DNA of 64,000 bases from an uncultured Bacteroidota bacterium (lineage in GTDB: Bacteria; Bacteroidota; Bacteroidia; AKYH767-A; OLB10). The stretch spans positions 151,106 through 215,105 of the forward strand of contig CAADHD010000018.1 of the NCBI GenBank assembly GCA_900696575.1. Reading direction: 5' to 3'. The position numbers and the translations under genes were made by a program. Shown here piece by piece: positions 34,687-51,592 of the stretch; position 1 is the first letter of the stretch; every line of letters begins with the position of its first letter. The notes below the pieces were generated by a model. That model ran no database searches. It was not told where the DNA came from and saw nothing but the letters and a program-made list of their open reading frames with translations.

Positions 34687-35514
34687 ATGAAATCAGGAAT
34701 TGCTTTACTCGTTATTTTTCTTCTAACGGCAACCGGCAGTCATGCTCAAAACGCTCTTGAAGGAATTATTATTGAGAAATACTACATCAGCGATGAAAAT
34801 GATTCTAAAGCCGAAGGTGCTGGATATCTTCCGCCCGGCTCAGTAACTTACCGTATTTATATTGACCTTGCAACAGACTGTAAACTCCATGCTGTTTATG
34901 GAGTAGAAGGACATGATTTAATCATCAGCACTACCACTGCTTTTTTTAATCATGAAATGTATGGGGCTGTAACCTCCAACGAAGTATTGGCAAGCACATT
35001 AATGCATAATTTAGTAATGCTTGACAGCTGGCTTTCTGTTGGCGCAGGGGCATCGGTCTATTTTGCATTGCCAAAAAGCAAGGATGATGAAAAAAATACA
35101 ACTAAGAACAATGATGGATTTCTGCAGAATAATCATCCTGATGCAGGGATTCCTTTGAAAGAAAGAGATGGATTGATGTATGCTTATCCTCAGCTGGCTG
35201 TTAATTTTTATGGGATTGATGATGGGTTGAAAAGCATTTTCGGAAAAACAAATTCGCGGATGCAAGGTCAGGAGTTTAAAACCAACAACGGTTCCTGGGC
35301 TTGTTTCGGAGGAGCTTATGGTCCTGACAAAGAAAATCTTGTCTGTATTGCACAATTGACAACCGATGGAGAGCTGTATTTTGAACTCAACATTCAGCTT
35401 GGAAAACCTGACGGTACTGTTGAAAATTATGTAGCCCGCAATCCTCAGGGAAATGAAAAAGTATATCCGCAGTTGATATTCCGGTCATCCTCTTTAAAAG
35501 CCGGACAGAACTAA
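34687..35514 (+). CDS. Secreted protein made of a single uncharacterised ~230-aa domain (copy 1)
   Basis: Signal peptide A|Q; YYISD, GSVTYRIY, DSWLSVG, AQLTTDG, FELNIQLG; no T9SS CTD. Confidence 0.8.
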   Translation: MKSGIALLVIFLLTATGSHAQNALEGIIIEKYYISDENDSKAEGAGYLPPGSVTYRIYIDLATDCKLHAVYGVEGHDLIISTTTAFFNHEMYGAVTSNEVLASTLMHNLVMLDSWLSVGAGASVYFALPKSKDDEKNTTKNNDGFLQNNHPDAGIPLKERDGLMYAYPQLAVNFYGIDDGLKSIFGKTNSRMQGQEFKTNNGSWACFGGAYGPDKENLVCIAQLTTDGELYFELNIQLGKPDGTVENYVARNPQGNEKVYPQLIFRSSSLKAGQN

Positions 35515-35684: not shown

Positions 35685-36794
35685 ATGAACAAAACCTTAC
35701 TCTCATTATTTGCATTATTACTTCTACATGCGGCTGCGCATTCACAAAACGGGCTGGAATGTGTGGCTGTAGAAATTTACTACATTTCCGATGCCAACGA
35801 TGCCGCTGCCAATCAGGATGGCGGAGTGCTGCCTGTGGGTTCGGTAACTTACCGCATTTATGCTGATATGTTGCCCGGTTACCGGTTTCAGGCTGCTTAC
35901 GGAGTAGATACTCCCGGAGCCGAACACGAATGCCGTATAGAAACAACCACTTTGTTTTTTAATAACGAAGACCGCGGAGCCACCACTCCTAATTTTACCA
36001 AAGCACAGGCTGCAGATAATACCGTAATGCTTGATTCCTGGCTCTCTGTGGGCGCAGCGTGTAAATTCAACTATGGAATTTTAAAATCGCTGGATGACGG
36101 TGTGGCCACCGTGGTAAATAATTACATTCCTCAGGTGTTACAAAACAACAATCCGCTGGCAGGTATTCCGCTTACGCAGCAGGATGGAATTATTGCCGGA
36201 AACGGTACTCCTGAGCCTGTAACTTTTGTTGGTATTACCAACGAAGTGTTGGTTTTTGATAATCAGAATGATGGAACTAACGGTCCGGTATTCTCTACCA
36301 TGAATGGCTCATGGGCTGCATTGAACGGTGCTGAAGGACCTGATCCTGTTGATAATAAAGTTTTGATTGCACAGATTACCACAGATGGCATTTTAACCTT
36401 CGAATTGAATATTCAGATTGGCACTCCGGGGGGTGGCGTTGAAAATTATGTTGCCAAAAACCCTGTTGGTAACGAAATCATGCTGCCTTGCCTGACTTTC
36501 AATTCTTCATCCATGATCAATGAAAACGGACAAACTGCAGGAACCAAAATGAATGTATATCCTAATCCGGTAAGAGACTTGTTTACATTGGAGATCTCTC
36601 CGTCAAAACCGGGGAACATCAGTTATGCACTCTTAAATCAGGAAGGCCGCAGGCTTGAAGTAAAGAAAATCGGATATGTAGATGATCAATTCTTTGAATA
36701 CATTGACCTATCAAATTATCCTGCCGGAACCTACCTGGTTGAACTTTACAATAATGGTATTGCTTCTTCCATGAAAAAAATCGTGAAGCAGTAA
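35685..36794 (+). CDS. T9SS cargo protein: uncharacterised domain (copy 2) + type A CTD
   Basis: Signal peptide S|Q; same domain motifs; CTD VYPNPVRD...LSNYPAGTYLVEL...KKIVKQ. Confidence 0.88.
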   Translation: MNKTLLSLFALLLLHAAAHSQNGLECVAVEIYYISDANDAAANQDGGVLPVGSVTYRIYADMLPGYRFQAAYGVDTPGAEHECRIETTTLFFNNEDRGATTPNFTKAQAADNTVMLDSWLSVGAACKFNYGILKSLDDGVATVVNNYIPQVLQNNNPLAGIPLTQQDGIIAGNGTPEPVTFVGITNEVLVFDNQNDGTNGPVFSTMNGSWAALNGAEGPDPVDNKVLIAQITTDGILTFELNIQIGTPGGGVENYVAKNPVGNEIMLPCLTFNSSSMINENGQTAGTKMNVYPNPVRDLFTLEISPSKPGNISYALLNQEGRRLEVKKIGYVDDQFFEYIDLSNYPAGTYLVELYNNGIASSMKKIVKQ

Positions 36795-36843: not shown

Positions 36844-39800
36844 ATGAAAGCATTCAGTCGTTTCTTTTGTCTGATTCTGTTTAAGATGATTATTGTTTAT
36901 CATGCATCAGGACAGGGTATAATACGCGGAAAAATATCTGACCAGAATGGAGAGCCGCTGATTGGTGCCACTGTTGTGCTGAAAGACAACCGCAGTATAG
37001 GCACCAGCGCTGATCTGGACGGCAATTATTCGCTGAAGATTACCGATACTTCTGCTCAGACCCTGATTATTTCTTTCATCAGTTTCAAAACCATTGAAGA
37101 AACGGTTCATCCTAAAAAAGGAGAAGTCATTATCCGGAATTTCATCATGAAACCTGCCACACAGGAAATTCAGGCAGTTGAAATCACGGCCAAACAATTG
37201 CGCGAGAAGGAGTCTTACATTGAAAAGGTAAAAATCAATTCGTCCGTAACGCTTGATTATGTTTCTGCCGAAAGTATTAAACGCACAGGCGATGCCAATG
37301 TGGTAACTGCCGTAGCGCGGGTACCGGGTATTTCAACAACGGGAAGCATAATAACCGTAAGAGGCGTAGGCGACCGTTATATTAAAACAGCGGTGAACGG
37401 ATTTAAAATCCCAACCCTTGATCCGTTTACCAATAACTTTAAACTTGACCTGATTCCATCGGCTCTTGTTGACAATGTCATTGTTACCAAAACAGCCAGC
37501 GCTGATTTGCCCGGTGACTGGGCAGGCGCTTATCTTTCGGTTGAGACCAAAGATTACCCCGAGAATCTTAGCATCAACATTGAATCATCGTTAACCTATA
37601 ACCCGCAAACAACCTTTAAAAAAATACTGACTTCGCAACGCAGCAAAACCGACTGGCTTGGCTATGACAGCAACCTGCGCGAGTATCCGCATGAAGATTT
37701 TTCATCCGTACAAATCTCGCCAAGCCTGTACAAAGAATTTGTGGCGCTTGGACTGGGCGGTTACTTCAACTCCATAGGAGTAACTCCCAATACGCCCTGG
37801 AATGATACCTATTACAAACTGGCTCTTGTTGAGCTTGGACTTTTACCCAAGGCCCTTTTTGATAATGAAGCCGCTTTTACCGAAGCAAAAAACAAATTCC
37901 TGCAAGGCGATTATAGAAACCGGGCTTTTGAAATAATTAACCGCGATGCCATTGAAGCAGCCAAAAAATTTCCAACTAACTGGAACACTCAATACCGCAA
38001 AGCGCCTCTCGGGTTTTCACAGAATATCTCCGTAGGAAATCAAACCACACTGTTTAATCGTCCTCTAGGATTTCTTTTTGGTTTGCGCTACGGAAGTTCA
38101 ACGCAGTATGACCCGCGTTCAACTTACAACAAAGGGGTGAATATTGATGGAGTAAAAACCAGTTCGCTGGATACCTTGCCGCAAGTCATCAGCAAAGAAA
38201 CCAACGGGTGGAGCGCCCTGATGAATCTTTCTTACAAGCTCAATTCAAACAATAGTATTGGTTTTATCTTTATGCCTAATCTTACAGGCGTAAATGATGT
38301 ACGCATTACCCGCGAGCCTTATGTGGATGGCAATGCATATTACCTTATTAACCGCAGCCAGTTTTATGAGGAACGTAAACAGTTGGTTTATCAATTACAG
38401 TCTCAGCATTATATCCCATCCATTAAATTAAAGACTGATATCCGTGCTGCTTACACAAACGGCAGCAGCAATGCCCCCGATTTTAAACGAATCATCTACC
38501 TGAAAGACCAGCAGGACAGCGCGCTTTCCATTGGAGGCAGCATAGGTGGAAATGCTGTTGCTAAAGGCGGTATTCACCGTTACTACCGTTATCTGAATGA
38601 CGACTTGCTTGATACTAAAATCGCTTTTGAGCTTCCGCTTCGCCCTCAGCCCGGCATGGCCCGCAAACTCATGTTCGGTGGCGGGTACCTGCGTAACGAT
38701 TGGAAGTTCAGACAATACGATTACTTGGTCAACTTCAGTCCGTTTGGCTTTGACCCTCTCTATGAAGAAGATTTTGATTTCTATTTCAGGCCGGATAAGT
38801 TTGACTTTAATACTTTTCAGTTTAACGGCCAGCCTGTTTTAAGTGTCAGTAATTATTATTCGGAAAGCGGAAGTCCTTCGAACTTTATTATTGGTGAAAC
38901 AACCATTATTTCGGCCTACACAATGGCTGATATAAATATTACCTACAGGATAAGGGCTGCGGCAGGAGTTCGTGCGGAACGTGCCAACTTGTTTACCGAT
39001 GCTTTTGGTTATGACTCTTTAGGATATCTAAAAGACGATCCGCGCAGGCAGACCTTGGCCGATGACTTTATTCTCAATCCTGCCAACATTATAAAAACCA
39101 GCTATCTGCCCAGTTTCAATCTCGTTTACAAACTGAAAGATGACGAGTTCCGCCCGGTTAACCTCAGGCTAAATTACAGCCAGACGGTGGCGCGCCCCGG
39201 CCTGAGAGAGCTTTCCGAATCTGTGGTGTATGACAATGAGCGCAGAAAAAATGTCTTCGGGAATGCTGAATTGAAAATGGCAAACATTTACAATTACGAC
39301 ATCAGGACAGAATCCTATTTTAAAAACGGAGATAATGTTTCGCTAAGCTTATTCTACAAGCATATTAAAAATCATATTGAACTGATTGAATATACACAGG
39401 GCTTCACATGGGTGAATGTGGATAAATCCATTGTGCAGGGCATTGAACTGGAAGGAAGAAAAAAGCTTCCTTTCAATTTTGAACTGAAAGCAAATGTTAC
39501 GATGGTAAAATCAGAATCTGATGTTGTCAGAAAAAGAATTGTTGTAGAAAATGGCATTAAAGCATTTATACCAATTGATACGATTACTCGTACCATGTAC
39601 GGGCAGGCACCTTATGTAGTTAATGTTATTCTTGGCTACATTGCCGACAGCCTCGGTTTGCAGATTACCGCAAGCTATAACTTGCAGGGTAAACGGCTTG
39701 TGATTGCCGAATCGGATCTGCTTTCCAATATCTATGAATTGCCCCGTCATCATGTTGATTTTAAAATTTCCAAAAAGCTTGGAAAACATTTCAGCACCAG

Positions 39801-39921
39801 TTTAACCATACGCGATGTTTTAAATACTCCGGTAAGACTTGCAGGCGATGGATGGAAACTCGATTATGAGAACATTAAGTATGGAAGAAGCTATTCTTTA
39901 GGCATTAGTTACCGGTTTTAA
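36844..39921 (+). CDS. TonB-dependent receptor with N-terminal CarboxypepD_reg-like domain
   Basis: IRGKISDQNGEPLIGATV, plug RVPGIS..ITVRGVGDRY, barrel NYDIRTESY, C-terminal YSLGISYRF; no SusD follows. Confidence 0.92.
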   Translation: MKAFSRFFCLILFKMIIVYHASGQGIIRGKISDQNGEPLIGATVVLKDNRSIGTSADLDGNYSLKITDTSAQTLIISFISFKTIEETVHPKKGEVIIRNFIMKPATQEIQAVEITAKQLREKESYIEKVKINSSVTLDYVSAESIKRTGDANVVTAVARVPGISTTGSIITVRGVGDRYIKTAVNGFKIPTLDPFTNNFKLDLIPSALVDNVIVTKTASADLPGDWAGAYLSVETKDYPENLSINIESSLTYNPQTTFKKILTSQRSKTDWLGYDSNLREYPHEDFSSVQISPSLYKEFVALGLGGYFNSIGVTPNTPWNDTYYKLALVELGLLPKALFDNEAAFTEAKNKFLQGDYRNRAFEIINRDAIEAAKKFPTNWNTQYRKAPLGFSQNISVGNQTTLFNRPLGFLFGLRYGSSTQYDPRSTYNKGVNIDGVKTSSLDTLPQVISKETNGWSALMNLSYKLNSNNSIGFIFMPNLTGVNDVRITREPYVDGNAYYLINRSQFYEERKQLVYQLQSQHYIPSIKLKTDIRAAYTNGSSNAPDFKRIIYLKDQQDSALSIGGSIGGNAVAKGGIHRYYRYLNDDLLDTKIAFELPLRPQPGMARKLMFGGGYLRNDWKFRQYDYLVNFSPFGFDPLYEEDFDFYFRPDKFDFNTFQFNGQPVLSVSNYYSESGSPSNFIIGETTIISAYTMADINITYRIRAAAGVRAERANLFTDAFGYDSLGYLKDDPRRQTLADDFILNPANIIKTSYLPSFNLVYKLKDDEFRPVNLRLNYSQTVARPGLRELSESVVYDNERRKNVFGNAELKMANIYNYDIRTESYFKNGDNVSLSLFYKHIKNHIELIEYTQGFTWVNVDKSIVQGIELEGRKKLPFNFELKANVTMVKSESDVVRKRIVVENGIKAFIPIDTITRTMYGQAPYVVNVILGYIADSLGLQITASYNLQGKRLVIAESDLLSNIYELPRHHVDFKISKKLGKHFSTSLTIRDVLNTPVRLAGDGWKLDYENIKYGRSYSLGISYRF

Positions 39922-39933
39922 AAAAAACAGAAA

Positions 39934-41286
39934 ATGAAAATCAACTATCCCATCAAGCTCCTCATTATTCTGGCTATTACAGTAAAAGGCATTCATGCCA
40001 ATGCGCAGATTGAAAACCTTATTGTAGAAACTTATTATATCAGCGACTCATTAGACGCTACCGACAGTACGCAGGGGCGTACCATAGAACCTGGCTCGGT
40101 TACCTATCGTGTATATCTTGATCTTGCTGCCGGAAGTAAAATTAAAAAAATTTACGGAGATCAGAATCATCCGCTCATTATAAGAAGCACGGAAGATTTA
40201 TATAATAACATTGATCGCCCAAACGCCTATTTCGGCTATTTGATAAACCGAAATTGGTTTTCCGGCAATCCAACTATTAGCCTTGACAGTTGGCTAACAC
40301 TGGGTATTGCCTGCCGGCTTTCCTCCACACAATACTATGGTGTATTAAAAACAGAAGATACAGATGGCTCCTTCGTTGGTGGAAGTAACAATCAGGGAGG
40401 CACCAGCGGTATTCCCGGAGGCATATTGGTGAACAATGATCCCGAAGCCGGAATACCTTTAACGGTTGCTGATGGATATTTATCAGGAGCATCTCCTGCA
40501 GGCCAGTGGTTTGATTACGGTTTTTTTGATGCATCTCTCGGTCACGATACCACCGTTTTCGGATCGCTCTATACAGGTAAAGAATTCAACAGCCGTATAG
40601 CCGTACTTCAACAGGGCGATGGAGTAGCAGGCATAACGGCTGATAATATCGTGTTGGTGGCCCAGGTAACCACCAAAGGACAATTGTCTTTTGAACTGAA
40701 TGTTCAGCTTGAAGAAGCGGATGGTACTATTGTGCATTATGTGGCTGATGATTCAGTGCTTATTAATACTTCTGTACCTCTTTATATTGAGCGTCTTAGT
40801 CCGTTTCTTAAATACCCTCCTGTTTGTGGTTGTTTAAACACCGACTACCTTGAATACAGCGCGGCTAATGCCTGTGAAAATAATGACTCTTGCAAAACAT
40901 TAATCGTTTTCGGTTGCATGGATCCGCTTGCCTGTAATTACAACGCTGAGGCTAACTATAACATAAAGGAACTCTGCTGTTATCCGGGATTGTGTGCCGA
41001 CAGAGATATTGAAGTGGTTTGTCCGTCATTAAAGAAGGCAAGACTTTTGGTTTCACCGAATCCTGCCGGAAATCAGATTGTATGGAACTTGATTGGCCCG
41101 GATAATGAGGACGGTTTTTTCACTATCTATAATGTTTCGGGAGAAAAAATGCTTCAGGGGAATTGGTCATCTGTATCCGAAGAACACGTGTTAGAGGTAG
41201 GAAGATTGCCGGAAGGATTTTACATTTTACAGGTGATGACCCAAAAAGGACTTTCACTGCATCAGTCATTCGTTATTTCACGATGA
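39934..41286 (+). CDS. T9SS cargo protein: uncharacterised domain (copy 3) + Cys-rich GCMDP.ACNY repeats + CTD
   Basis: Signal peptide A|Q; domain motifs; CGCLNTDYLEY / FGCMDPLACNYN; CTD VSPNPAG...LPEGFYILQV. Confidence 0.85.
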   Translation: MKINYPIKLLIILAITVKGIHANAQIENLIVETYYISDSLDATDSTQGRTIEPGSVTYRVYLDLAAGSKIKKIYGDQNHPLIIRSTEDLYNNIDRPNAYFGYLINRNWFSGNPTISLDSWLTLGIACRLSSTQYYGVLKTEDTDGSFVGGSNNQGGTSGIPGGILVNNDPEAGIPLTVADGYLSGASPAGQWFDYGFFDASLGHDTTVFGSLYTGKEFNSRIAVLQQGDGVAGITADNIVLVAQVTTKGQLSFELNVQLEEADGTIVHYVADDSVLINTSVPLYIERLSPFLKYPPVCGCLNTDYLEYSAANACENNDSCKTLIVFGCMDPLACNYNAEANYNIKELCCYPGLCADRDIEVVCPSLKKARLLVSPNPAGNQIVWNLIGPDNEDGFFTIYNVSGEKMLQGNWSSVSEEHVLEVGRLPEGFYILQVMTQKGLSLHQSFVISR

Positions 41287-41290
41287 AGCC

Positions 41291-42046
41291 ATGATAAAAT
41301 CAGCAAAACCTTTTTTTATATCGTTGTCATTTTGGATGGCGGCTATTGCTATGTTACTTTTTTCCGGCTGTGGAAAAGAAGTGAAAGAAATAGAAGATCC
41401 TGTTTTTGAAAAAGGAACGGTAACGGATATGGAAGGCAACATCTATGAAACAGTAAAAATCGGAAATCAATGGTGGATGGCTGAAAATCTGAAGAGCACC
41501 AAATTCCGTGATGGTTCGGACATTACCTTTATATCAAGACTTAACCCGGTTCGGTGGGATACCATTAATTCCTCTGCTTATAGCCAATACGAAGATAATC
41601 CTTCAGCGCCCGGGTTGCTTTATAACTGGTATGCGGTGAGTGATGCACGCGGACTTGCTCCTGAAGGATGGCGGATAGCAACTGATGAAGACTGGAAAGA
41701 ATTGGAAAGACATGCAGGCATGAGCAATGACGAGGCGGATGGACTTGCGTGGAGGGGCACTTATGAAGGCGACCACCTTAAAGTAAAAGCCCCGGAAGGG
41801 TGGACGCTGTTCGGTACTGTTTGGGGAGATAATAAAACAGGCTTTGCTGCCCTTGGCGGAAGCTGCCGTTTATTCAACGGGAATTTTGGCATACCGGGAT
41901 TAAAACAATCCGGGTTCTGGTGGACTTCTTCTTCTTTTGAAAACGGCCAGGCCTGGTACCGTTATCTCGATTACAAGAAATCGCAGGTGTTTCGTTCGCA
42001 TATAATGCATTCTTATGGTATGAGTGTGCGTTGCGTAAAAAACTAA
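41291..42046 (+). CDS. FISUMP (Fibrobacter succinogenes major paralogous domain) lipoprotein
   Basis: Lipobox FSGC; VTDMEGNIYETVKIGNQWWMAENL, GLLYNWYAV, PEGWRIA, GFWWTSS, GMSVRCVKN. Confidence 0.92.
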   Translation: MIKSAKPFFISLSFWMAAIAMLLFSGCGKEVKEIEDPVFEKGTVTDMEGNIYETVKIGNQWWMAENLKSTKFRDGSDITFISRLNPVRWDTINSSAYSQYEDNPSAPGLLYNWYAVSDARGLAPEGWRIATDEDWKELERHAGMSNDEADGLAWRGTYEGDHLKVKAPEGWTLFGTVWGDNKTGFAALGGSCRLFNGNFGIPGLKQSGFWWTSSSFENGQAWYRYLDYKKSQVFRSHIMHSYGMSVRCVKN

Positions 42047-42283: not shown

Positions 42284-43921
42284 ATGAAACAAAAAACAAA
42301 AACCAAATGGATCATGGTATCAGCACTTGGGCTGCTGATGTCATTCGGAAGCATGGCCCAATCCAACTTAGGCGCTGATTGCGGATGTCCTACACCCGTA
42401 TCATCGCGACCCACAGTAGCTCTTTCTACTCTTGCCGTTTCAGGCGGGGCAACGGACGGTGATCTTATTGCCAACAGTACCGTACTTACCTGCGACAAAA
42501 CATGGATTCTTGACAAAAAAATCTATGTGCCTGACGGGAAATCGCTCACCATCCAGGCCGGAACAGTGATTAAGGGAGTGGATACGATTACCATTCCTGC
42601 TAATGCTGTTGCATTGGTGGTATCAAGAGGCGGTAAAATTTTCGCTAACGGTACACCCACATGTCAGATTGTATTCACTGCCAATAGCGACAACCTTAGC
42701 GGAACCTATGGCATAGCCAATCGTGGCAAATGGGGCGGGGTAGTTGTTTGCGGGCGTGCGGTAAACAACATTGTAAGTTGCAATACGCTTTATGGGGGCA
42801 GCCCGGGCGTTGCTTTCCCTGAAGGTTTTTCAGCAGCTAATTCGCGCATTCTTTATGGAGGTTCTGATAATGATGACAACTCTGGTATCATGAGATATGT
42901 TTCTATTCGTCATGCCGGAGCTGTTATTTCAGCCGGTAACGAATTGAACGGATTAACACTTGGATCTGTTGGCCGCGGCACTACTGTTGAATATATTGAA
43001 GTGGTTTCGAATGATGATGATGGTGTTGAAGTATTCGGGGGTACCGTAAACCTCAAGTACATTTCAACTATGTTTCTTGCTGATGATGGTCTTGACTGGG
43101 ACCATGGTTGGGTTGGTAAAGCGCAGTTTATTTTCAACCTTCAGGCCGACAGTATTACAGCACCAACCGGAGATAACGGGTTTGAAGCCGATGCTACTGA
43201 CCAGAAAAACAATTCTGCAACTCCACGTTCGCATCCTGTCGTTTATAATGCAACAATGATTGGTTCCGGCAAACGCCTGAATGTTGCTGATAACAGCGGC
43301 CACAATGCTATTAACGCTAAAGAACTTACCGAAGGTGAAATTTACAATTCAGTATTCGCCAATTTCAACAGCGGATTGAATATGACTAAATCCTTGGGCA
43401 GTTCATCGGCCTGCGGTTCGCACCTAACCGAAGCTTACGATAACTGGATTGCAGGTTCACTTAAAATTCAATGCAACACTTTCTTTATGATGAATGATGC
43501 CAATAACGCCAGATTTCTTGTTCTTGATAACAGCCTGGCCAGTGTTACTCCGGCAGATGTTGCCAAATTTGATACAGACGGCAACCTGCGTCCTACAGGC
43601 ACCGCTCCGATACCCGGCTTTGATCATGTTTGGGCTATGAACTCCTCTACCAATGTGGTTTCTGATAAGTTTGATGCTGTTCCGAATCCGGCATTATCTA
43701 CTACCTGCACTCCTCCTAATGATGGCTTTTTTGTAAATGCAAATTATCGCGGGGCATTCGCTTCTACCGGAAAACCCTGGCTATCTCCATGGGCTTATGC
43801 CACTGTTCTGGGAGTTACTTCTAACCTGCAACCCTGTCCTACAGATATAAACGGAGATGGCATTACCAACAATGCTGACTTCCTGATTCTGCTTGGCCAG
43901 TTTAACCAGTCTTGTAACTAA
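42284..43921 (+). CDS. Secreted beta-helix (pectin-lyase-like) protein with C-terminal dockerin-like/EF-hand tail
   Basis: SPI signal A|Q; GKWGGVV, DDNSGIMRYVSIRHAG, NELNGLTLGSVGRGT, DDGVEVFGG, DDGLDWD repeats; tail CPTDINGDGITNNADFLILLGQFNQSC. Confidence 0.8.
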   Translation: MKQKTKTKWIMVSALGLLMSFGSMAQSNLGADCGCPTPVSSRPTVALSTLAVSGGATDGDLIANSTVLTCDKTWILDKKIYVPDGKSLTIQAGTVIKGVDTITIPANAVALVVSRGGKIFANGTPTCQIVFTANSDNLSGTYGIANRGKWGGVVVCGRAVNNIVSCNTLYGGSPGVAFPEGFSAANSRILYGGSDNDDNSGIMRYVSIRHAGAVISAGNELNGLTLGSVGRGTTVEYIEVVSNDDDGVEVFGGTVNLKYISTMFLADDGLDWDHGWVGKAQFIFNLQADSITAPTGDNGFEADATDQKNNSATPRSHPVVYNATMIGSGKRLNVADNSGHNAINAKELTEGEIYNSVFANFNSGLNMTKSLGSSSACGSHLTEAYDNWIAGSLKIQCNTFFMMNDANNARFLVLDNSLASVTPADVAKFDTDGNLRPTGTAPIPGFDHVWAMNSSTNVVSDKFDAVPNPALSTTCTPPNDGFFVNANYRGAFASTGKPWLSPWAYATVLGVTSNLQPCPTDINGDGITNNADFLILLGQFNQSCN

Positions 43922-43962: not shown

Positions 43963-46900
43963 ATGAAAAAGATGATGAAAAGCATCATGCTGGGTTTGGC
44001 CCTCATGATAACAGCTACAATGACCAAAGCCCAAGGAATTGAAAACGTGCAAGTGGAAATCTTTTATGTTTCCAATGCAGCCGATGCTGCCGGCAGTGCC
44101 GGTACGCTGCCTGCCGGATCTATCACCTACCGTATTTATGTGGATATGCTTCCGGGTTATAACTTCCAGGCGCTTTACGGATTGCCCGGTAAAGACACCC
44201 TGCGTGTTCAAACTTCCACTTCATTCTTCAATAATGAAGATTATGGCGGTACAACTCCTTCCATAAGCGTTACTAACGTGCGGAAAAATTCTGCTTTGCT
44301 CGATTCGTACTTCTCAGTTGGCGGAGCAGCCAACGGAAGAGTGGGAGTATTGAAAACAGAAGATACGGATGGGTCACCGGGTAATGCCGATAACATCCTT
44401 CAGAACAATGACCCCTATGCAGGAGGCATTCCAATTAATATCGGAACTACTACCAACACTACTGCACGTGATGGAATGATTCCCGGATCGCCTGTAGCCG
44501 TTACCTTTGTTGGTATCTCTGCTGCAGAGTTAGATGTCTTTGACGGTACAAGCCAGTCAGGAAACTTCTTCCAAACAGAGAACGGCTCCGTAGCTGCTCT
44601 TGGAGGTGCTACCGGCCCAACAGCAGCCAACCGTGTGTTGGTTGGACAGTTTACCACTGATGGAGTGTTCTCTTTTGCTCTGAACATTCAGATTGGAACT
44701 CCCGGTGGCGGTGTTGAAAATTATGTTCACTCAAACCCATCTGCCGGTGAATTTACTGCTCCTTTCCTTAAGCAGACTTTTGCCCCTCCCGGCTCCAACA
44801 CCCCTCCAACCATCAGTATTATTTCTCCGGTTAACGGCTCCAGTGTACTTGTTGGCTCTACCGTTACTATTGATGCCAATGCCAATGATGCTGACGGAAC
44901 CATTGATTCTGTTCAGTTCTTTGTTGATGCTGTTTATATCGGCTCTGATTTAACAGGCCCGAACCCTTATACCATTAACTGGACAGCTACCCTCGGCCCT
45001 CATACTTTGACTGCCCGTGCCTATGACAACAATGGAGCCTCCACGTTATCTTCAGGCATTAACATCAACGTAACCAGCAACCCTCCTCCGGCAGTTGCCA
45101 TTACTTCACCTGCCAACGGAGCATTGTTTACGGCACCAGCCATCGTTAGTATTTCTGCTACGGCTACCGATCCCAATGGTACTGTTGACTCAGTTCAGTT
45201 TTTTGTGAACAGCGTGTATGTAGGCTCTGACATTACTCCTCCTACTCCGTTTACTTTTGACTGGACAAGCGTTATTGGCACTGCCTCGCTTACCGCCCGC
45301 GCATGGGATAATAACGGAGCCTCTACACTTTCGGCTGCCGTTAATATCAACATCCTTGATCCAAATGCCCTGGGATACAAAGTAACTACTGTTGTAGCAA
45401 ACTGTTCTCAGAATTTGTTCTGTATTCCCGTAACTGCTGTGGATACGGTTGACAATATCATTGGTTATGATGTTGTACTTGATTATGATGAGAATAAAGT
45501 TACTCCTACAGGCGTAATTTCTGTAAGCAATGCTTTGATCAATCCGACATGGACATCAACGGCTCATAGTATTAATTCTGTAAACGGCACTATGAACATT
45601 TCTGTTTTCTTCAATGCCAATGCTCCTTCCAATGCTAAATTTCAGGGAACAGGCGATATCTTTTGTGTTCAGTTTTCAAAGAACATCACTTTCGGTATTG
45701 CTGACACCGCTGACTTCTCTGTTACGCAGCTTCAGGAAAGTTATGCTAACGGAGTTCAGCAACAATTGGCCGATGCTGGAAAGTTTATTACTTTCTCGGA
45801 TACTGATTTGGATGGTAAACTGAAATTCTGGTTCGATAGCAGTCCGATTAAATACGATGCTTTTAACCCTGCTGCGCACCTTATTACCAATATCTATGGC
45901 AACGACAATACCTGCGCTAACCGTTCAGCTACGGCTGTTCAGCCCGACCTCAATGGCGATTTCACGTACGATACTCAAAACGGTTCGCATGTCGAAATCA
46001 TTAAAGACATTGCAGGTACTACCGATGTGCAGCCCGTTGTAAATGGTTTTGATGCCTTCCTTACCCGTCTGGTATTGATTAACGACTTGTCTTTTATTCC
46101 CACCATTTTCCAGATTATCTCTATGGATGTTAACACCGATGGGGTGGTAAGTGCGGGCGACCTTTCGCAGATTAACCAACGTGCCGTCTTGCAAATTCCC
46201 GAATTCAAACAAAGCTGGAATTATGACATCAACGGTTTACCTCTCGGTCCGCCTTCTAAAGACTGGCTCTTCGTCAATCAGTCAACCTTGAACAGCAATC
46301 TGGCTTATCAAATCTCATCTACCTATCCGGGCAATGACGGAGTGGGTTATTCAAAATCCAATGTTCCGCAAGTGCCTTTCTGTTTGCCTGTTCCTTCTAT
46401 TATACTTAGTGGATGTGTACAGATTCAGGATGCCACTTATTTTGGTATGTTGCTCGGAGATGTTAACGGAAACTTTGCTACGGTTGTTCCTAACAGCGAG
46501 TTCCGTGCAGGCAACGACAAAGTAGTGTTTGACATGGAAAAAGCCCGCATTGAAAACGGATACTTGGATGTACCGGTTTCTTTTGTAAGCAATGAAAAAG
46601 TTCATGCCATTGACTTTGCCCTGCAGTTTGATAACAGCAAACTGGAGTTCAACACCATCGTAAATCACAATAGCGATTTACAGGTGCTGGCTAACATGAA
46701 CACGGTGGACAACACGCTTCGCTTTACTTCCAACAGTCTTGTTACTGTGGCTGAAAACAGCACTCCTGTTTCTGTTCGTTTTGCCCTTAAGTCAAATGCA
46801 GTTACAGCAAATGACCTTTCAGCCGTAAGCGCTTTCCTTAACGGTGAGCGTACAGGCGCTGAAGTGAAAGGCGCTCAGTTAACGACTGATTTCAGTGGCG

Positions 46901-47130
46901 TAATGGTTAATGTGTTTCCCAACCCCGCCCATGAAATGCTTAATGTAACCGTGTCAGAAGATGCTTCTGTTCAGCTTCTCGACATCACCGGAAAACAGAT
47001 TCTTGTTGAGAAAAACATACTGGCCGGTGAAGCTCATCAACTTGATATACGTACGCTTGCCAAAGGCGTGTATGTACTGAAAGTGTTTAACAAAGGCTTT
47101 ATTTCATTGAATAAAGTGGTTCTTAATTAA
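43963..47130 (+). CDS. Scaffoldin-like T9SS cargo: uncharacterised domain (copy 4) + 2x Ig-like (Big_7) + cohesin + dockerin-like + cohesin + CTD
   Basis: PPTISIISP..DADGTIDSVQF..TLTARAYDNNGA x2; IPVTAV..IIGYDVVLDYD..GTGDIFCVQF; VNGFDAFL..DVNTDGVVSAGDL; VPVSF..AIDFALQFD; VFPNPAHE..LAKGVYVLKV. Confidence 0.8.
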   Translation: MKKMMKSIMLGLALMITATMTKAQGIENVQVEIFYVSNAADAAGSAGTLPAGSITYRIYVDMLPGYNFQALYGLPGKDTLRVQTSTSFFNNEDYGGTTPSISVTNVRKNSALLDSYFSVGGAANGRVGVLKTEDTDGSPGNADNILQNNDPYAGGIPINIGTTTNTTARDGMIPGSPVAVTFVGISAAELDVFDGTSQSGNFFQTENGSVAALGGATGPTAANRVLVGQFTTDGVFSFALNIQIGTPGGGVENYVHSNPSAGEFTAPFLKQTFAPPGSNTPPTISIISPVNGSSVLVGSTVTIDANANDADGTIDSVQFFVDAVYIGSDLTGPNPYTINWTATLGPHTLTARAYDNNGASTLSSGININVTSNPPPAVAITSPANGALFTAPAIVSISATATDPNGTVDSVQFFVNSVYVGSDITPPTPFTFDWTSVIGTASLTARAWDNNGASTLSAAVNINILDPNALGYKVTTVVANCSQNLFCIPVTAVDTVDNIIGYDVVLDYDENKVTPTGVISVSNALINPTWTSTAHSINSVNGTMNISVFFNANAPSNAKFQGTGDIFCVQFSKNITFGIADTADFSVTQLQESYANGVQQQLADAGKFITFSDTDLDGKLKFWFDSSPIKYDAFNPAAHLITNIYGNDNTCANRSATAVQPDLNGDFTYDTQNGSHVEIIKDIAGTTDVQPVVNGFDAFLTRLVLINDLSFIPTIFQIISMDVNTDGVVSAGDLSQINQRAVLQIPEFKQSWNYDINGLPLGPPSKDWLFVNQSTLNSNLAYQISSTYPGNDGVGYSKSNVPQVPFCLPVPSIILSGCVQIQDATYFGMLLGDVNGNFATVVPNSEFRAGNDKVVFDMEKARIENGYLDVPVSFVSNEKVHAIDFALQFDNSKLEFNTIVNHNSDLQVLANMNTVDNTLRFTSNSLVTVAENSTPVSVRFALKSNAVTANDLSAVSAFLNGERTGAEVKGAQLTTDFSGVMVNVFPNPAHEMLNVTVSEDASVQLLDITGKQILVEKNILAGEAHQLDIRTLAKGVYVLKVFNKGFISLNKVVLN

Positions 47131-47234: not shown

Positions 47235-48563
47235 TTAAACCCGCTTAATAAAATCACTGTACCATCTACCCGAATTTTTTATTGTTCGCTTTAATGTTTC
47301 AAAATTCACATACACCAATCCGAAGCGTGGATGATATCCCTCACTCCATTCAAAATTATCGGTAAGCGACCACACAAAATAGCCTGAGACCGGACATCCT
47401 TCTTCTTTGGCTTTCAGCATCTGCTCAATGTAATGCTGTAGAAAATGGATTCGGTTATCGTCATTTACTTTGCCGTTTTCAATCGTATCATTAAAAGCGG
47501 CTCCATTTTCTGTTACGATGACTTGCCGGAAACCGTATTGACTGAATTTTTTTATCATGGCATAAAGTGATTCAGGATAAACTTCCCAGTTGAGTACGGT
47601 ATGATAAACCTTTCGTTCATGAGCAGGTACCGGCTTTCCGTTAAGAAAAGGAATATACCAGGCATGCCTGATAACCTCGCGGGTATAATTCTGTATTCCG
47701 ATAAAATCAAGCGGAGCGGTCATACGGATCTCATCGCCCGCTCTCATAATTTTTTCAACACGTTTCAGAAAAGGCAAATCCTTTACAGGATAACCCAGTC
47801 CGGCAGCAGGCTCTGCGAATAGCCGGTTAAGCAAGGCATCAAAACGGTGTGCTGCTTTTATATCTTTCTCTTTGGTTGAAAACGGTGTAATGTGCGAACA
47901 GGAAAAAGTTGAACCAATTAAATGCTGTTCTCCATACGAACGGATAACCCGTACTCCTTCGGCAAGGCTCAGCACTGCATGGTGCATGGCAGGAATAAAA
48001 TTTTTTAAGCCGCGTTTGCCGGGAGCATGAATGCCTAAGAAATACCCGGCTCCGGTAAATGCCATCGGCTCATTCAATACCATCCAGTGATTGGCCTTAT
48101 CTTGAAAATTTTTAAGACATACCTGTACATAATTGCAAAACCAGCTTACGATATCCCTGTTAACCCATCCTCCCTTTTCCTGCAGGGCCTGAGGCAAATC
48201 CCAGTGATAAAGCGTAACCCAAGGAGTTATGCCCCGCACCTGACAGGCATCCAGCACTCGGTGATAAAAACCCAGACCTTTTTGATTTACTGCCCCTGTG
48301 CCATCCGGAATAATTCTCGGCCACGAAAATGAAAACCGGAAATGGCGAATTCCAAGCTGATAAATAATATCCAGGTCTTCTTCAAAGCGGTAATAAAATT
48401 CCGTAGCCCTGTGTGCATGATGGCCGTTACGGATTTTCCTTTTCCGGCCGGTAAACACATCCCAGATGCTCAAGCCTTTTCCATCTTCCAGATAGGCGCC
48501 TTCCGTCTGAAAAGCAGAAGAAGCAACTCCCCAAATGAAATTGTTATTACCCTTTATAAGCAT
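47235..48563 (-). CDS. Beta-glucosidase (GH1)
   Basis: WGVASSAFQTEGA, RFSFSWPRI, TLYHWDLP, NEP acid/base, VTENG nucleophile, DNFEW. Confidence 0.95.
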   Translation of the reverse strand: MLIKGNNNFIWGVASSAFQTEGAYLEDGKGLSIWDVFTGRKRKIRNGHHAHRATEFYYRFEEDLDIIYQLGIRHFRFSFSWPRIIPDGTGAVNQKGLGFYHRVLDACQVRGITPWVTLYHWDLPQALQEKGGWVNRDIVSWFCNYVQVCLKNFQDKANHWMVLNEPMAFTGAGYFLGIHAPGKRGLKNFIPAMHHAVLSLAEGVRVIRSYGEQHLIGSTFSCSHITPFSTKEKDIKAAHRFDALLNRLFAEPAAGLGYPVKDLPFLKRVEKIMRAGDEIRMTAPLDFIGIQNYTREVIRHAWYIPFLNGKPVPAHERKVYHTVLNWEVYPESLYAMIKKFSQYGFRQVIVTENGAAFNDTIENGKVNDDNRIHFLQHYIEQMLKAKEEGCPVSGYFVWSLTDNFEWSEGYHPRFGLVYVNFETLKRTIKNSGRWYSDFIKRV

Positions 48564-48590
48564 GCAGGCAAAGATGATGCACCTGCTGTG

Positions 48591-49631
48591 TTATCGGAAA
48601 AGTCTGTATTCGGTGTGGCGGCTTACATAAGGAACAGCCTTTTCTGTATGATGGTTTTCCATGATAGTAGCAATGATTTCCTGTACATGGTCAGGATAAT
48701 TTACCTCAATCATGCTCTTGCGGTCAATCCAATCGTTTATCTTTTCATAATGTTTTTTCTTCAGGCTTTTTATCACTTTAACACCCATGGATTTAAGCAT
48801 GGCGGCATTACAATGCTGCTCATACTGCATCTTCATGGGGATGACTAACATTTTCTTATTCAGAAAAAGTGCCTCGGAAGTGGTTCCAAAACCTGCATTG
48901 CAAAGAATGCCTTCGCATGATGCCAGACTTTTTACAAACCGCTCATGTTCCAATGGCCATACACGGACATTTTTTTCGCGGTGTTTCTTTTTACAGTGTT
49001 TTGAGAATACCTGCCATTCGCATTTTTTAAAACGCGTAAGGTGTTTGCTGATTCTGTCATCATCATAGCTGGGAAGATAAACCGTAAAGTGTCCTTCATT
49101 ACTCACTTGCTGCTCACGGATTTCTTTACGGATAACGGGAGTGAAAATGTTTTTGTCGAGCCGTTTATAATGAAAACCATAATTGACTGTGGTTGGGGCG
49201 TAATGATCGAGCACCATTTTGCCCAATAGATCATTCGATTTCGGTTTAGGTGCCAGCGGATGCAAGGTGGCGATCTGATTGCTCAGTCCTATGCAGGTTC
49301 TTTTTGCCATCAGGCATGCCCATGACGATACCGGCTCAAAATCGCTGATGACCATGTCGTATTGCTCCACATTCAGGCTTCGGATTTCTTTAAGCAGCCG
49401 CAGGGAGTTCATGCGCAGGTATGTTTGCCATACATTGATGCCTCCAGTTTTACCAAAGATGAATGACAAACCCTGCAAACGGTATTTCACTTCAAAAGGC
49501 AGAGGCAAATCAGCCTGAATGCCGCTGAGTAATACATCGGTTTCTCCATATTTTTTAAGAGCGGGAACAATATCCATGGCACGGGTCAGGTGGCCGTTTC
49601 CGGTGGCTTGTATGGCATAAAGTATTTTCAT
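48591..49631 (-). CDS. Glycosyltransferase, MJ1255/VC2487-like GT-B family
   Basis: MKILYAIQATGNGHLTRA, ISDFEP, CNAGFGTTSEAL, QYEQHCNA. Confidence 0.85.
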   Translation of the reverse strand: MKILYAIQATGNGHLTRAMDIVPALKKYGETDVLLSGIQADLPLPFEVKYRLQGLSFIFGKTGGINVWQTYLRMNSLRLLKEIRSLNVEQYDMVISDFEPVSSWACLMAKRTCIGLSNQIATLHPLAPKPKSNDLLGKMVLDHYAPTTVNYGFHYKRLDKNIFTPVIRKEIREQQVSNEGHFTVYLPSYDDDRISKHLTRFKKCEWQVFSKHCKKKHREKNVRVWPLEHERFVKSLASCEGILCNAGFGTTSEALFLNKKMLVIPMKMQYEQHCNAAMLKSMGVKVIKSLKKKHYEKINDWIDRKSMIEVNYPDHVQEIIATIMENHHTEKAVPYVSRHTEYRLFR

Positions 49632-49636
49632 GGTGT

Positions 49637-50527
49637 TTAATTGTTTTTACTTTGTTTTACAAAAGGGGTTAATTCGCGGAAATCGGACAGCATGTGCCTG
49701 AAAATTTCTTCGTTTTTCAACAGTATAAATTTGTCTTCTTCCTGTTCCTGCACTTCGTCTCCGGCAGGCGGCTGTTCGGTATGCCGATAAATTTTCCATA
49801 TCCCTTCATGATATTCTAAAGCGCTGAGGTTTTCAATCCAGTCGCCCGAGTTGAGGTAGATTACGGGTCCTTTATCAGTAGCAATGGTTTTGATTTCAGG
49901 ATGATGAATATGCCCGCAGACTACATACCGGTAATGATTTTTGGCAGCCAGAGCGGCACAGGTGTTTTCAAATGAGTTGATATAACTCACCGCCTGTTTT
50001 ACGTTGTTCTTGATTTTTTTGGAAAGAGAGATGCGTCCGCGTCCGGTTTGTTCGCTGATAAAGTTGCAGAAGGTGTTGAGATGAATAAGCCAGTTGTAAC
50101 CGACCGAACCGAGGCGTGCCAGCCATCGGGCATGTTGCATGGTTATGTCAAAAACATCGCCATGAAAAATCCATGTTTTGCCTTCAGGAAGGTTAAGTAC
50201 CAATTTGTTTTCAATCATAAAATTGGAAAGACGGAAGCCGGCAAAGCGCCTCAGCATTTCATCGTGATTGCCGGTGAGGTAATAAACCGTTACTCCTTTC
50301 TTAAGCCATTTGGTTATCTGGTGAATAACCTGCATGTGCGACTTTGGGAAATACTTCTTGTCAAACTGCCACACATCAATGATGTCGCCATTCAGAATCA
50401 CTGTTTCCGGCTGAATGCTTTTCATATAAGCAACCAATTCTTTGGCACGGCATCCATACGTGCCGAGATGCACATCGGAGATCACTACTATTTCTACTTT
50501 TCGTTTTGTTTTAGGATAAGTATTCAT
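49637..50527 (-). CDS. Metallophosphoesterase of the UDP-2,3-diacylglucosamine hydrolase superfamily, PlcP-like
   Basis: SDVHLG, GDIIDVW, FPKSH, TGNHDEMLR, HGDVFD, CGHIHHP, YLNSGDWIE. Confidence 0.85.
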   Translation of the reverse strand: MNTYPKTKRKVEIVVISDVHLGTYGCRAKELVAYMKSIQPETVILNGDIIDVWQFDKKYFPKSHMQVIHQITKWLKKGVTVYYLTGNHDEMLRRFAGFRLSNFMIENKLVLNLPEGKTWIFHGDVFDITMQHARWLARLGSVGYNWLIHLNTFCNFISEQTGRGRISLSKKIKNNVKQAVSYINSFENTCAALAAKNHYRYVVCGHIHHPEIKTIATDKGPVIYLNSGDWIENLSALEYHEGIWKIYRHTEQPPAGDEVQEQEEDKFILLKNEEIFRHMLSDFRELTPFVKQSKNN

Positions 50528-50708: not shown

Positions 50709-50827
50709 TATTAACACAGAATCGTTGACGGCAAAACCATCATAGCCGATTTAATTATTTCATAAACTTTTTTTTACGCTGCTGGCCGAAACCGCTTATA
50801 CTTTTGGGTTCCCAAACCGCTTCAACC

Positions 50828-51592
50828 ATGACCAAATCCTTCTACCTTGTGGCTTTATGTTCTTTTTTATTTTCTGCAGGCATCAGTGTTCAAGCACAGG
50901 AGAACAAAGTATCTCCGCCTGTAACCGCAAACATTGATCAGTTTGATTCTGTAGTGTTCGACCTTTCACAGGCTGTTGTCGCCAACGGCTATTTGGAGTT
51001 CCCTGTGTATTTCAAAACGGATGATGTAATCTATTCACTTGATTTTTCGCTTAAATACAATCAGACCAAATATCTGTATGATACCATCATTGATATGACC
51101 ACTTACCTCCTTGATAATTCGTTTTACAACCAATTTGACTCAACTATCCGTTTCACCTCAAGCAGTCTGACTCCCATTCCCAATTTGACGCAATTGGTAA
51201 AAGTACGATTCGACACCATCACTACCAGCCTCATGTGCTTTGGTGATATTTTTACGCTTAAGGGATATCTCAATGGCGACCAATGCAGCGTTAAATTAGT
51301 TGACTGCAACCTGCTTTCTGTTTCAGAGAATTCATTCAATCACGGAAGTATTGTCATATTTCCGGTTCCTTCTAAGGAGGTCATTCATGTCCGCATGAAT
51401 GAATTGATTCAGAATGCTGTTATATCAATGACGGATTTATCAGGCAGAATCATTGAAGAGCAAAATCATCAGATTGTTCAGCCCGGTTCAACCGTTTCTT
51501 TTGAAACGGGTAATCTGTCCGATGGGGTTTACTTGGTAACCGTTAAATCCGGAAGAAATACGTTTACCGGGAAAGCGGTCATCAACAAATAA
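50828..51592 (+). CDS. T9SS cargo: single cohesin-like domain + CTD
   Basis: Signal peptide A|Q; FPVYFKTDDVIYSLDFSLKY..RFTSSSL..VKVRF; CTD IFPVPSKE..LSDGVYLVTV..GKAVINK; TACTTTTG -7 box upstream. Confidence 0.8.
   Translation: MTKSFYLVALCSFLFSAGISVQAQENKVSPPVTANIDQFDSVVFDLSQAVVANGYLEFPVYFKTDDVIYSLDFSLKYNQTKYLYDTIIDMTTYLLDNSFYNQFDSTIRFTSSSLTPIPNLTQLVKVRFDTITTSLMCFGDIFTLKGYLNGDQCSVKLVDCNLLSVSENSFNHGSIVIFPVPSKEVIHVRMNELIQNAVISMTDLSGRIIEEQNHQIVQPGSTVSFETGNLSDGVYLVTVKSGRNTFTGKAVINK

Follow-up and report, generated by a model that had tools for sequence, protein, structure and literature searches.

A Cys-bracketed half-dockerin tail stands in the anchor's place in a beta-helix protein from a conserved TonB-dependent transporter locus of uncultured Bacteroidota

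Analysis of a 64,000-nucleotide stretch of DNA from an uncultured Bacteroidota bacterium (contig CAADHD010000018.1 of assembly GCA_900696575.1; the whole stretch is called the window below) revealed a gene for a 545-amino-acid (aa) Beta_helix_4 protein that is closed by a single Cys-bracketed EF-hand/dockerin repeat (42284 to 43921, plus strand, in the open reading frame [ORF] list; the end coordinate takes in the stop codon). This half-dockerin tail occupies the position in which relatives carry a lipid anchor or the C-terminal sorting domain (CTD) of a type IX secretion system (T9SS), and the next gene encodes a scaffold-like protein with two cohesin modules. We propose, with a probability of roughly 0.4, that the beta-helix protein is tethered by docking of its tail on a cohesin of this scaffold. 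The docking partner, the surface location, and the route across the outer membrane are the putative parts of this proposal, which we infer from gene content, homologues, and structure models.

The tail, delimited from the sequence, the alignment, and profile matches, comprises residues 518 to 545 (43835 to 43918, plus strand; CPTDINGDGITNNADFLILLGQFNQSCN), so that the protein ends in CPTDINGDGITNNADFLILLGQFNQSC-N, an EF-hand/dockerin loop and helix flanked by two invariant Cys residues. EF-hand positions 1, 3, 5, 6, and 12 are taken by D521, N523, D525, G526, and D532 (pattern D-x-[ND]-x-D-G-x5-D), and an AlphaFold2 (AF2) model predicted a helix at residues 530 to 538 after the loop, which is a putative calcium-binding site. 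The initial annotation of the gene had described a 28-aa Cys-bracketed EF-hand tail; the motif stands, and its length is corrected to 27 aa from C518 to C544, or 28 aa counting the final Asn. When a loose pattern was run over the six-frame translation of the window, only two such loops were found, the other one lying inside the neighboring scaffold.

Conservation is stronger in the tail than anywhere else in the protein. Across 36 orthologous loci, the median identity to the window protein was 70% for the tail versus 50% for the core, and the tail was found at the extreme C terminus in all 120 closest homologues (52 to 100% identity; Bacteroidia-type metagenome bins), with a nearly invariant end made up of Cys plus one residue. 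C518, D521, G526, D532, and C544 were invariant in an alignment of 43 homologues. Conservation extends past the calcium ligands and the helix's hydrophobic face to the polar residues T528, N529, N530, N541, and Q542, and at such non-ligand polar positions it is what one would expect if they formed an interaction surface. Of the 197 distinct family members that have a loop at the terminus, 180 had both Cys residues, 13 had neither, and none had the upstream Cys alone, while the remaining 4 carried a second tail type with the upstream Cys further off. This paired keeping and loss supports a C518-C544 disulfide, which is thus predicted for the window protein. Some lineages lacking both tail Cys residues and having an altered tail end (L025 and L031) still occupy the same locus with cohesins.

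The second tail type is likewise a Cys-bracketed single loop (C..EADVN.SG.I...DL..LV.YLF.GGP.P..C), sometimes duplicated, and closes multi-copy Beta_helix_4 proteins of other lineages (P0160, P0178, P0184, P0197, P0201, P0214, P0225, and P0263); dockerin-like tails were therefore gained more than once in the family. A protein search for other families, performed with a 41-aa profile of the tail, gave only seven short fragments.

In comparison with curated dockerin families, the tail was recognizable at scores below the thresholds. Dockerin_1 (PF00404) matched the isolated tail with 16.8 bits (E = 0.0077; gathering threshold [GA], 22.9) over profile positions 29 to 53 only, and the Pfam search with the whole beta-helix protein gave no Dockerin_1 match. 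The "GC-type dockerin" model NF041540 gave 14.6 bits for the whole protein and 19.6 bits for the tail alone (cut-off, 29), and a PDB sequence search aligned the tail to both repeats of dockerin 2y3n_B at a subthreshold E value of 0.13. The single tail maps to both ends of the NF041540 profile with the middle deleted. P0189, a Beta_helix_4 homologue with two tandem tails, scored 32.7 bits, above the NF041540 cut-off, over the full 67-position profile, and the tail of the window protein is therefore one repeat of this curated two-repeat Cys-bracketed type. It has the calcium loop followed by a helix that defines type I dockerins, and the C-terminal position and Cys bracket of the GC type, with one repeat in place of the two tandem ∼22-residue repeats that form the three-helix fold of a canonical dockerin. 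Considering the one repeat and the subthreshold scores, the beta-helix protein was not classed as a dockerin or as a member of NF041540, and we regard its tail as a half-unit of the latter. The single repeat may need pairing to work, as the two-repeat homologues suggest. No paper on the GC-type dockerin was retrieved in a literature search.

At the other end of the protein, a signal peptide was read from the sequence at residues 1 to 25 (42284 to 42358, plus strand), with a basic n-region, a hydrophobic core of ∼15 residues, and the small residues Ser and Ala at −3 and −1. Signal peptidase I (SPI) is predicted to cut between SMA and Q, leaving MKQKTKTKWIMVSALGLLMSFGSMA before the cut and QSNLGADCGCP after it. 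The SPI call combines this rule-based reading with the alignment, and the cleavage site is the predicted one. Residues 1 to 22 were modeled with a predicted local distance difference test (pLDDT) score below 50, and conservation in the 43-homologue alignment starts at Q26, with G30, C33, G34, C35, and P36 invariant; in all 120 closest homologues, the cleavage region reads A/G-Q and then NLGxxCGCP. The mature N terminus (42359 to 42409, plus strand; QSNLGADCGCPTPVSSR) thus contains the invariant C33 and C35 and was modeled at a pLDDT of 95 over residues 31 to 40. C70 and C127 are also invariant in this alignment, and C33/C35 together with C70/C127 probably form a disulfide-stapled N-terminal cap, the partners being assigned from conservation.

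No lipobox ([LVI][ASTVI][GAS]C) was present at the end of the hydrophobic core in the beta-helix protein or in any subfamily homologue. The first Cys of the window protein lies 8 residues past the predicted cut with Asp at −1 and therefore belongs to no lipobox. The CGCP motif was also considered as a cryptic lipobox or anchor and was rejected, as it lies within the fold at a pLDDT of 95 and occurs in the CTD-bearing relative P0145 as well. Moreover, Pfam and NCBIfam searches found neither a type A (Por_Secre_tail) nor a type B T9SS CTD in the protein; the same searches did find a CTD in three neighboring proteins, and a later Pfam search added two more downstream.

Surface display in Bacteroidota is thought to follow two ways, namely, through lipoproteins with an export signal or through T9SS cargo with a C-terminal sorting domain. 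Both are represented among relatives of the window protein. The Beta_helix_4 family comprises 5,777 clusters at 50% identity, and among the best 150 representatives, 40 ended in the tail, at least 41 had a T9SS CTD, and 8 had a lipobox, the rest being fragments or proteins with other C-terminal domains; many of the CTD-type representatives hold two to five tandem beta-helix copies. For a comparison of gene neighborhoods, 80 genome loci were fetched, 36 of them tail bearing. The tail-less homologues in these loci were mostly lipobox proteins of ∼440 to 490 aa encoded directly beside a TonB-dependent transporter (TBDT): a lipobox was found in ∼30 of 49, most of which adjoin a TBDT, and 14 of the ∼30 had an acidic cluster (at least two Asp/Glu at +2 to +8 after the lipidated Cys) resembling the surface-export signal of Bacteroidota lipoproteins, K-(D/E)2 or SDDDD (PMC5080379). 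Since most tail-less relatives are lipoproteins beside a TBDT or bear a T9SS CTD, the tail sits in the anchor's place. From the lipobox with acidic cluster or the CTD of these relatives, it appears that the usual site of action of the family is outside the outer membrane, where it would partner a TBDT.

These results bear out most of what the initial annotation had read at the two ends of the protein. Its SPI-type signal without a lipobox agrees with the rules and the alignment, its statement that a CTD is lacking agrees with searches that detect CTDs in the neighbors, and its description of the tail as dockerin-like is supported by the exact ligand spacing, the weak matches to dockerin models, and the two-repeat relative P0189. 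Its statement that lipoproteins next to TBDTs are the usual form of the homologues held in our sample, and the comparison of homologue termini that it had proposed, now performed, placed the tail where paralogous lineages have a lipobox or a T9SS CTD.

A position in the anchor's place could also mean that the tail is a new C-terminal sorting signal, read by a T9SS shuttle such as PorV or by another system, with no scaffold protein involved. The near-invariant end at the extreme C terminus, the occurrence in the position of the CTD in paralogues, the name that NCBI curators gave to the two-repeat form ("dockerin domain-anchored"), and the persistence of the tail in loci without cohesins (see below) are all in line with such a signal. 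T9SS CTDs are beta-sandwiches of roughly 70 to 100 residues, however, and the 28-residue tail is far shorter than these, unlike them, and a textbook calcium loop plus helix; in addition, L025 and L031 drop both Cys residues and change the tail end, and yet stay in the same cohesin locus. Thus, we consider a sorting signal very improbable.

The scaffold-like neighbor (1,055 aa) starts 41 bp past the beta-helix gene and is encoded at 43963 to 47130 on the plus strand, as are all of its modules. Pfam, paralogy, AF2, and Foldseek gave the order signal peptide, domX (an uncharacterized domain of ∼245 aa), two Big_7 domains, cohesin 1, X-module plus dockerin-like unit, cohesin 2, and T9SS CTD. Cohesin-like module 1 (residues 466 to 640; 45358 to 45882) scored 15.9 bits with Pfam Cohesin, below GA, and was modeled as a beta-sandwich with a pLDDT of >90, while module 2 (residues 861 to 980; 46543 to 46902), also a beta-sandwich in the AF2 model, scored 25 to 25.5 bits against a GA of 24.1. 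The middle region between them (residues 641 to 860; 45883 to 46542) consists of an X-module-like beta domain and a dockerin-like three-helix unit (Dockerin_1, 18.5 bits, below GA; AF2; Foldseek) with a degenerate first repeat, an intact loop (DVNTDGVVSAGD), and helices at 230 to 240, 250 to 256, and 266 to 276 of the model. The C-terminal sorting domain is of type A (46903 to 47127; PF18962, E = 1.4e-11; TIGR04183, E = 2.7e-9).

The AF2 model of scaffold residues 466 to 980 reached a pLDDT of 90.6 and a predicted template modeling score (pTM) of 0.79, and Foldseek matched it to type I cohesins with a probability of 1.00 (target-normalized TM score [TMt], 0.72 to 0.78; root mean square deviation, ∼3.2 Å; matches not split by module). 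The top matches were chains of Coh9-X-DocII from CipA of Clostridium thermocellum (3kcp_A and 4fl4; E = 1e-9), and the neighbor is therefore truly scaffoldin-like. According to AF2 and Foldseek, its modules have the nine-stranded jelly-roll beta-sandwich of the cohesin fold, and some homologues carry precomputed PF00963 hits. The neighboring cohesins of the initial annotation are thus real cohesin folds, as judged by Pfam (module 2 above GA), AF2, and Foldseek. The X-dockerin of the scaffold suggests scaffold-to-anchor or scaffold-to-scaffold docking without the beta-helix protein.

Gene neighborhoods tied the tail to one particular locus. A single gene cluster, named here for domX, the TBDT, and the FISUMP-domain protein, was common to all 36 tail-bearing loci and found in none of the tail-less loci among the 80 compared. 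Its members are two to five domX paralogues, a TBDT of ∼1,025 aa, a protein that combines domX with a Cys-rich module and a CTD, a FISUMP lipoprotein, the beta-helix protein, and a protein with domX first and a T9SS CTD last, encoded 27 to 180 bp past the beta-helix gene across loci. Wherever a tail-bearing locus extended far enough upstream, it included the TBDT, and in all tail-bearing loci, the product of the gene that follows the beta-helix gene began with domX. This downstream protein was a cohesin scaffold in 24 of the 32 informative loci.

Under the cohesin-docking proposal, the beta-helix protein would be exported by Sec and cleaved by SPI and would then fold and become oxidized in the periplasm, where the tail would load calcium and the C518-C544 disulfide would close. 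The 28-residue half of a GC-type dockerin would have replaced the family's usual anchor (lipid or T9SS CTD) in this lineage and would dock noncovalently on the T9SS-exported surface protein encoded 41 bp downstream, one of the two cohesins being the likeliest receptor. Cohesin 1 would be the favored site, being better conserved and covarying more with the tail. The beta-helix would thus be held at the cell surface beside the TBDT as a client of a miniature T9SS-anchored cellulosome-like complex, and the X-dockerin of the scaffold would engage the small cohesin-CTD proteins encoded further downstream. The locus context suggests, but does not prove, such a small cellulosome-like assembly around a nutrient transporter. 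Docking on a cohesin is supported by the anatomy of the tail, by its position as a stand-in for an anchor, by its strict association with this locus, by the cohesin scaffold next door in 24 of the 32 informative loci, and by a tail divergence that goes along with that of cohesin 1 and the middle region of the scaffold and not with that of its CTD.

Several results weigh against docking on a cohesin. Seven of the 32 informative loci (L018, L020, L021, L022, L023, L027, and L033) encode a downstream domX protein with PKD/Ig/Fn3-like domains and nevertheless retain an intact tail, and no hidden cohesins were detected in these seven loci and their fetched flanks with hidden Markov models (HMMs) built from 25 to 52 locus modules, with Pfam, or with hhalign (probabilities of <1%). 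No cohesin was found, either, within 10 kb of the giant multi-copy relatives that have the same kind of tail (L037 and L040). A single repeat cannot build the canonical two-repeat dockerin fold, all dockerin scores of the window tail are subthreshold, and the tail was modeled with only a moderate pLDDT of 63 to 68, below that of the core. In a mirror-tree analysis, tail divergence, with core divergence controlled for, gave partial correlations of 0.57 with domX, 0.48 with the middle region, and 0.38 with cohesin 1; cohesin 2 (0.20) was not significant, and the scaffold CTD was uncorrelated with the tail. The cohesins give no stronger a signal than domX does, and the analysis, confounded by phylogeny, does not single out a partner.

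Because the tail is intact in the seven cohesin-less loci, the neighboring cohesins are not its universal partner; in those loci, either cohesins elsewhere in the genome serve or the receptor is another conserved locus product, with domX as the obvious candidate. The initial annotation, which had the tail dock on the neighboring cohesins, is accordingly retained in part: the beta-helix, the dockerin-like tail in the anchor's place, and the cohesin folds next door stand, and the co-occurrence of tail and locus is perfect, whereas the cohesins as a general partner do not hold in 7 of the 32 informative loci.

If the tail is a tether, its receptor could thus be a universal product of the locus other than a cohesin, most likely the domX of the downstream protein and alternatively the TBDT or the FISUMP lipoprotein, in which case the cohesins would serve other clients or self-assembly of the scaffold. 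A protein with domX and a CTD follows the beta-helix gene in all tail-bearing loci, the seven cohesin-less ones included, domX has the top partial correlation with tail divergence (compared with both cohesins), and the scaffold's own complete dockerin-like unit could fill its cohesins, the pTM of 0.79 fitting a compact arrangement. On the other hand, we know of no precedent for a dockerin-like repeat that binds anything but a cohesin; domX, for which a profile search of PDB and Pfam found no relatives, offers no structural reason to expect binding; its correlation is confounded by shared ancestry; and cohesins lie right next door in 24 of the 32 loci. We therefore regard a non-cohesin receptor as unlikely and continue to prefer a cohesin of the scaffold.

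The route across the outer membrane poses a further difficulty for surface tethering. To our knowledge, no such route exists for a non-lipoprotein without a CTD, and no report of piggy-back export by the T9SS was retrieved in the literature search. The T9SS exports folded proteins (PMC9251779), which makes coexport as a preformed complex conceivable. The calcium-bound beta-helix protein might, for instance, latch onto the cohesin (or domX) of the CTD-bearing scaffold by its tail and cross the T9SS translocon as a preassembled complex, although we hold such tail-borne hitch-hiking to be decidedly unlikely.

Alternatively, the protein might be periplasmic, with the beta-helix processing material imported by the TBDT and the tail acting as a calcium- and disulfide-stabilized cap or as a dimerization element made of two paired EF-hands. 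The SPI signal of the protein comes with no known determinant of outer-membrane export, its conserved Cys pairs suit the oxidizing periplasm, single EF-hands commonly pair, the two-repeat homologues suggest that the functional unit is a pair, and the tail is kept in loci without cohesins. However, relatives carry surface-directing devices (lipobox plus acidic cluster, or a T9SS CTD), the tail exceeds the core in conservation at solvent-type polar positions, suggesting a partner interface, and its pLDDT below that of the core is not suggestive of a tightly packed cap. A periplasmic location is hence a doubtful alternative to cohesin docking at the surface.

The body of the protein is a right-handed parallel beta-helix (residues ∼43 to 505; 42410 to 43798, plus strand), as indicated by the strand ladder of the AF2 model, Foldseek, and invariant residues. 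PF28492 (Beta_helix_4) was matched in the precomputed annotation of the identical database protein P0001 and of all 120 listed homologues. The AF2 model, built on 43 homologues, has a pLDDT of 85.3, a pTM of 0.88, and a long regular ladder of short strands, and a Foldseek search of PDB with the core returned solely right-handed beta-helix proteins (PL6 alginate/chondroitin lyases, pectin methylesterase, and phage tailspike depolymerases; TM scores, 0.24 to 0.30). At the level of the model, the fold class is thus established, in agreement with the beta-helix call of the initial annotation, and the core motifs it had listed were found in the sequence (DNSGIMRYVSIRHAG and GLTLGSVGRGT). No specific enzyme family was assignable from the Foldseek matches (TM scores of ≤0.30 and 8 to 14% identity), no catalytic residues could be mapped, and a PDB sequence search with the whole protein found no solved relative. 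Invariant acidic motifs recur on successive coils in the 43-homologue alignment (DDNDNSG, DDGVEVFGG, DDGLDWDHG, and DNGFEAD). A reasonable guess is that the beta-helix binds or cleaves an anionic glycan destined for the TBDT, the substrate being a putative one.

The remaining genes of the cluster lie upstream of the beta-helix gene on the plus strand. The first encodes a 275-aa protein that contains only domX and is paralogous to the scaffold N terminus (34687 to 35514; phmmer domX match at residues 24 to 261; no Pfam hit), and the second a 369-aa protein with domX and a T9SS CTD (35685 to 36794; Pfam, NCBIfam, and paralogy). They are followed by the TBDT, the core of the locus (1,025 aa; 36844 to 39921; CarbopepD_reg_2, Plug, and TIGR01782), a 450-aa protein in which domX is accompanied by a Cys-rich module and a T9SS CTD (39934 to 41286; Pfam, NCBIfam, and paralogy), and a 251-aa FISUMP-domain lipoprotein with the lipobox LFSGC, conserved in position (41291 to 42046; PF09603, E = 8.6e-45; TIGR02145). 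Together with the domX part of the scaffold (43963 to 44778), the three domX genes at 34687 to 35514, 35685 to 36794, and 39934 to 41286 make up the four paralogous domX copies of the window, which share 33 to 50% identity. The Cys-rich module of the 450-aa protein, C(T/M)DP-x-A-x-NY...DDGSC at residues ∼300 to 370, also lies at the mature N terminus of many lipoprotein-type beta-helix homologues and stands directly before the tails of the giant multi-copy relatives; loci with this module include L037, L040, L045, L050, and L053.

Downstream of the scaffold, two plus-strand genes encode proteins with a cohesin-like module and a T9SS CTD. The smaller protein has one module of the coh2 type (50804 to 51592; phmmer coh2; Por_Secre_tail, E = 3.6e-10; Cohesin, E = 0.085, below GA) and is a candidate for the anchoring cohesin; the other, of 425 aa, carries a second such module (51777 to 53054; phmmer coh2; Cohesin, E = 0.0068, below GA; Por_Secre_tail, E = 1.5e-9). 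Equivalents of the small cohesin-CTD gene come after the scaffold in most related loci. In the window, a minus-strand trio at 47235 to 50527 (GH1 beta-glucosidase, family 1 glycosyltransferase, and metallophosphoesterase) parts the scaffold from the small cohesin-CTD genes, and since related loci have the small cohesin gene directly after the scaffold, the trio looks like an insertion or rearrangement specific to the window genome. Dockerin-like tails were found on other proteins of such clusters as well: a domX protein of L005 (11706 to 13073) has two canonical dockerin-like repeats in place of the CTD, and a 202-aa protein of L029 (14992 to 15600), encoded between the scaffold and the small cohesin-CTD gene, ends in two Cys-containing repeats. 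Substitution of a dockerin-like tail for the CTD is thus a recurring feature of these clusters.

The whole 18.8-kb locus is flanked by a hairpin-rich direct repeat of ∼181 bp (34334 to 34514 and 53113 to 53293; ∼95% identical) that contains an exact 47-mer (34347 to 34393 and 53126 to 53172). No Rfam family matched the repeat, and contigs from other runs join it to unrelated sequence, which makes a multicopy intergenic element probable. A 433-aa ORF (32965 to 34266) directly upstream of the repeat has weak matches to the alpha-alpha toroid of squalene-hopene cyclases/prenyltransferases (PF13243, E = 3.6e-8) and no evident link to the locus. A scan of the locus for promoters and terminators gave counts at or near the shuffle expectation, with a tool whose promoter models exclude Bacteroidota. 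Sequence of the window recurs at full identity in metagenomes from activated sludge, wastewater, and bioreactors. In runs of sludge-type reactors labeled RNA-Seq, contigs covered the locus at a low and even level, with genes on both strands, and one contig ran across the junction from the beta-helix gene into the scaffold gene; DNA carry-over is possible in these runs, and for that reason we claim no operon or regulation.

Three aspects of these findings are new: the dockerin takes a single-repeat form with a predicted disulfide bracket, one protein family uses it systematically where an anchor (lipid or CTD) would otherwise stand, and it is embedded in a compact TBDT locus that is conserved widely among environmental Bacteroidia. 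Should the tail dock as proposed, it would constitute a third, noncovalent mode of surface display in Bacteroidota, and one would have to ask how the outer membrane is crossed by a folded client, to which T9SS hitch-hiking offers a directly testable answer. If that answer were true, the type IX system would gain its first described case of piggy-back export, and a TBDT-centered "mini-cellulosome" would be widespread in environmental Bacteroidia. Docking as proposed would also make the locus a compact nutrient-capture machine, whose TBDT, scaffold, and client are met again in many uncultured Bacteroidia of sludge, soil, and freshwater. As a minimal tag for designer assemblies of proteins, a half-dockerin of 28 residues locked by a disulfide would be attractive. 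If the tail is only a periplasmic stabilizer, the finding shrinks to a family-specific decoration.

Among known systems, the TBDT and surface-lipoprotein pairs of the SusCD and BtuBG kind are similar to the tail-less Beta_helix_4 lipoproteins, which are encoded beside a TBDT and often have the acidic cluster, whereas the window protein has no lipid anchor, lies two genes from its TBDT, and has a fold unrelated to SusD and BtuG. With pectate-lyase-fold enzymes (PL6 lyases, pectin methylesterase, and tailspike depolymerases) it shares the right-handed parallel beta-helix architecture, a likeness at the fold level only (TM scores of 0.24 to 0.30; 8 to 14% identity). The tail resembles the GC-type dockerin NF041540 in being a C-terminal, Cys-bracketed EF-hand loop plus helix and differs from it in having a single repeat and a score below the cut-off.

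Non-cellulosomal cohesins and dockerins are well known. With the clostridial type I dockerin (PF00404) and its cohesin (PF00963), the tail shares the ligand pattern D-x-N-x-D-G-x5-D and an amphipathic helix, and it differs in its one repeat, its disulfide bracket, and its subthreshold scores. The scaffold-like neighbor resembles the clostridial cellulosome in its cohesin folds and Coh-X-Doc-like layout; in contrast, its host is a diderm Bacteroidota, its anchor is a T9SS CTD rather than an SLH domain or sortase, and its client would be a TBDT-associated beta-helix that is not a recognized carbohydrate-active enzyme (CAZyme). Rumen Bacteroidetes have been reported to possess proteins with dockerins (PMC6487960). 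In "Candidatus Stygibacter" of the Cloacimonadota, a cohesin scaffoldin with a T9SS CTD and signal-peptide enzymes with C-terminal dockerins were inferred from genomes (PMC8542988). That system and the one described here both pair a CTD-anchored cohesin scaffold with dockerin-type clients and are both known from genomes only. The locus in the window is distinguished by its compact, highly conserved, TBDT-centered organization with a single half-dockerin client, and by a scaffold of two cohesins accompanied by small cohesin-CTD proteins, with no array of carbohydrate-binding modules.

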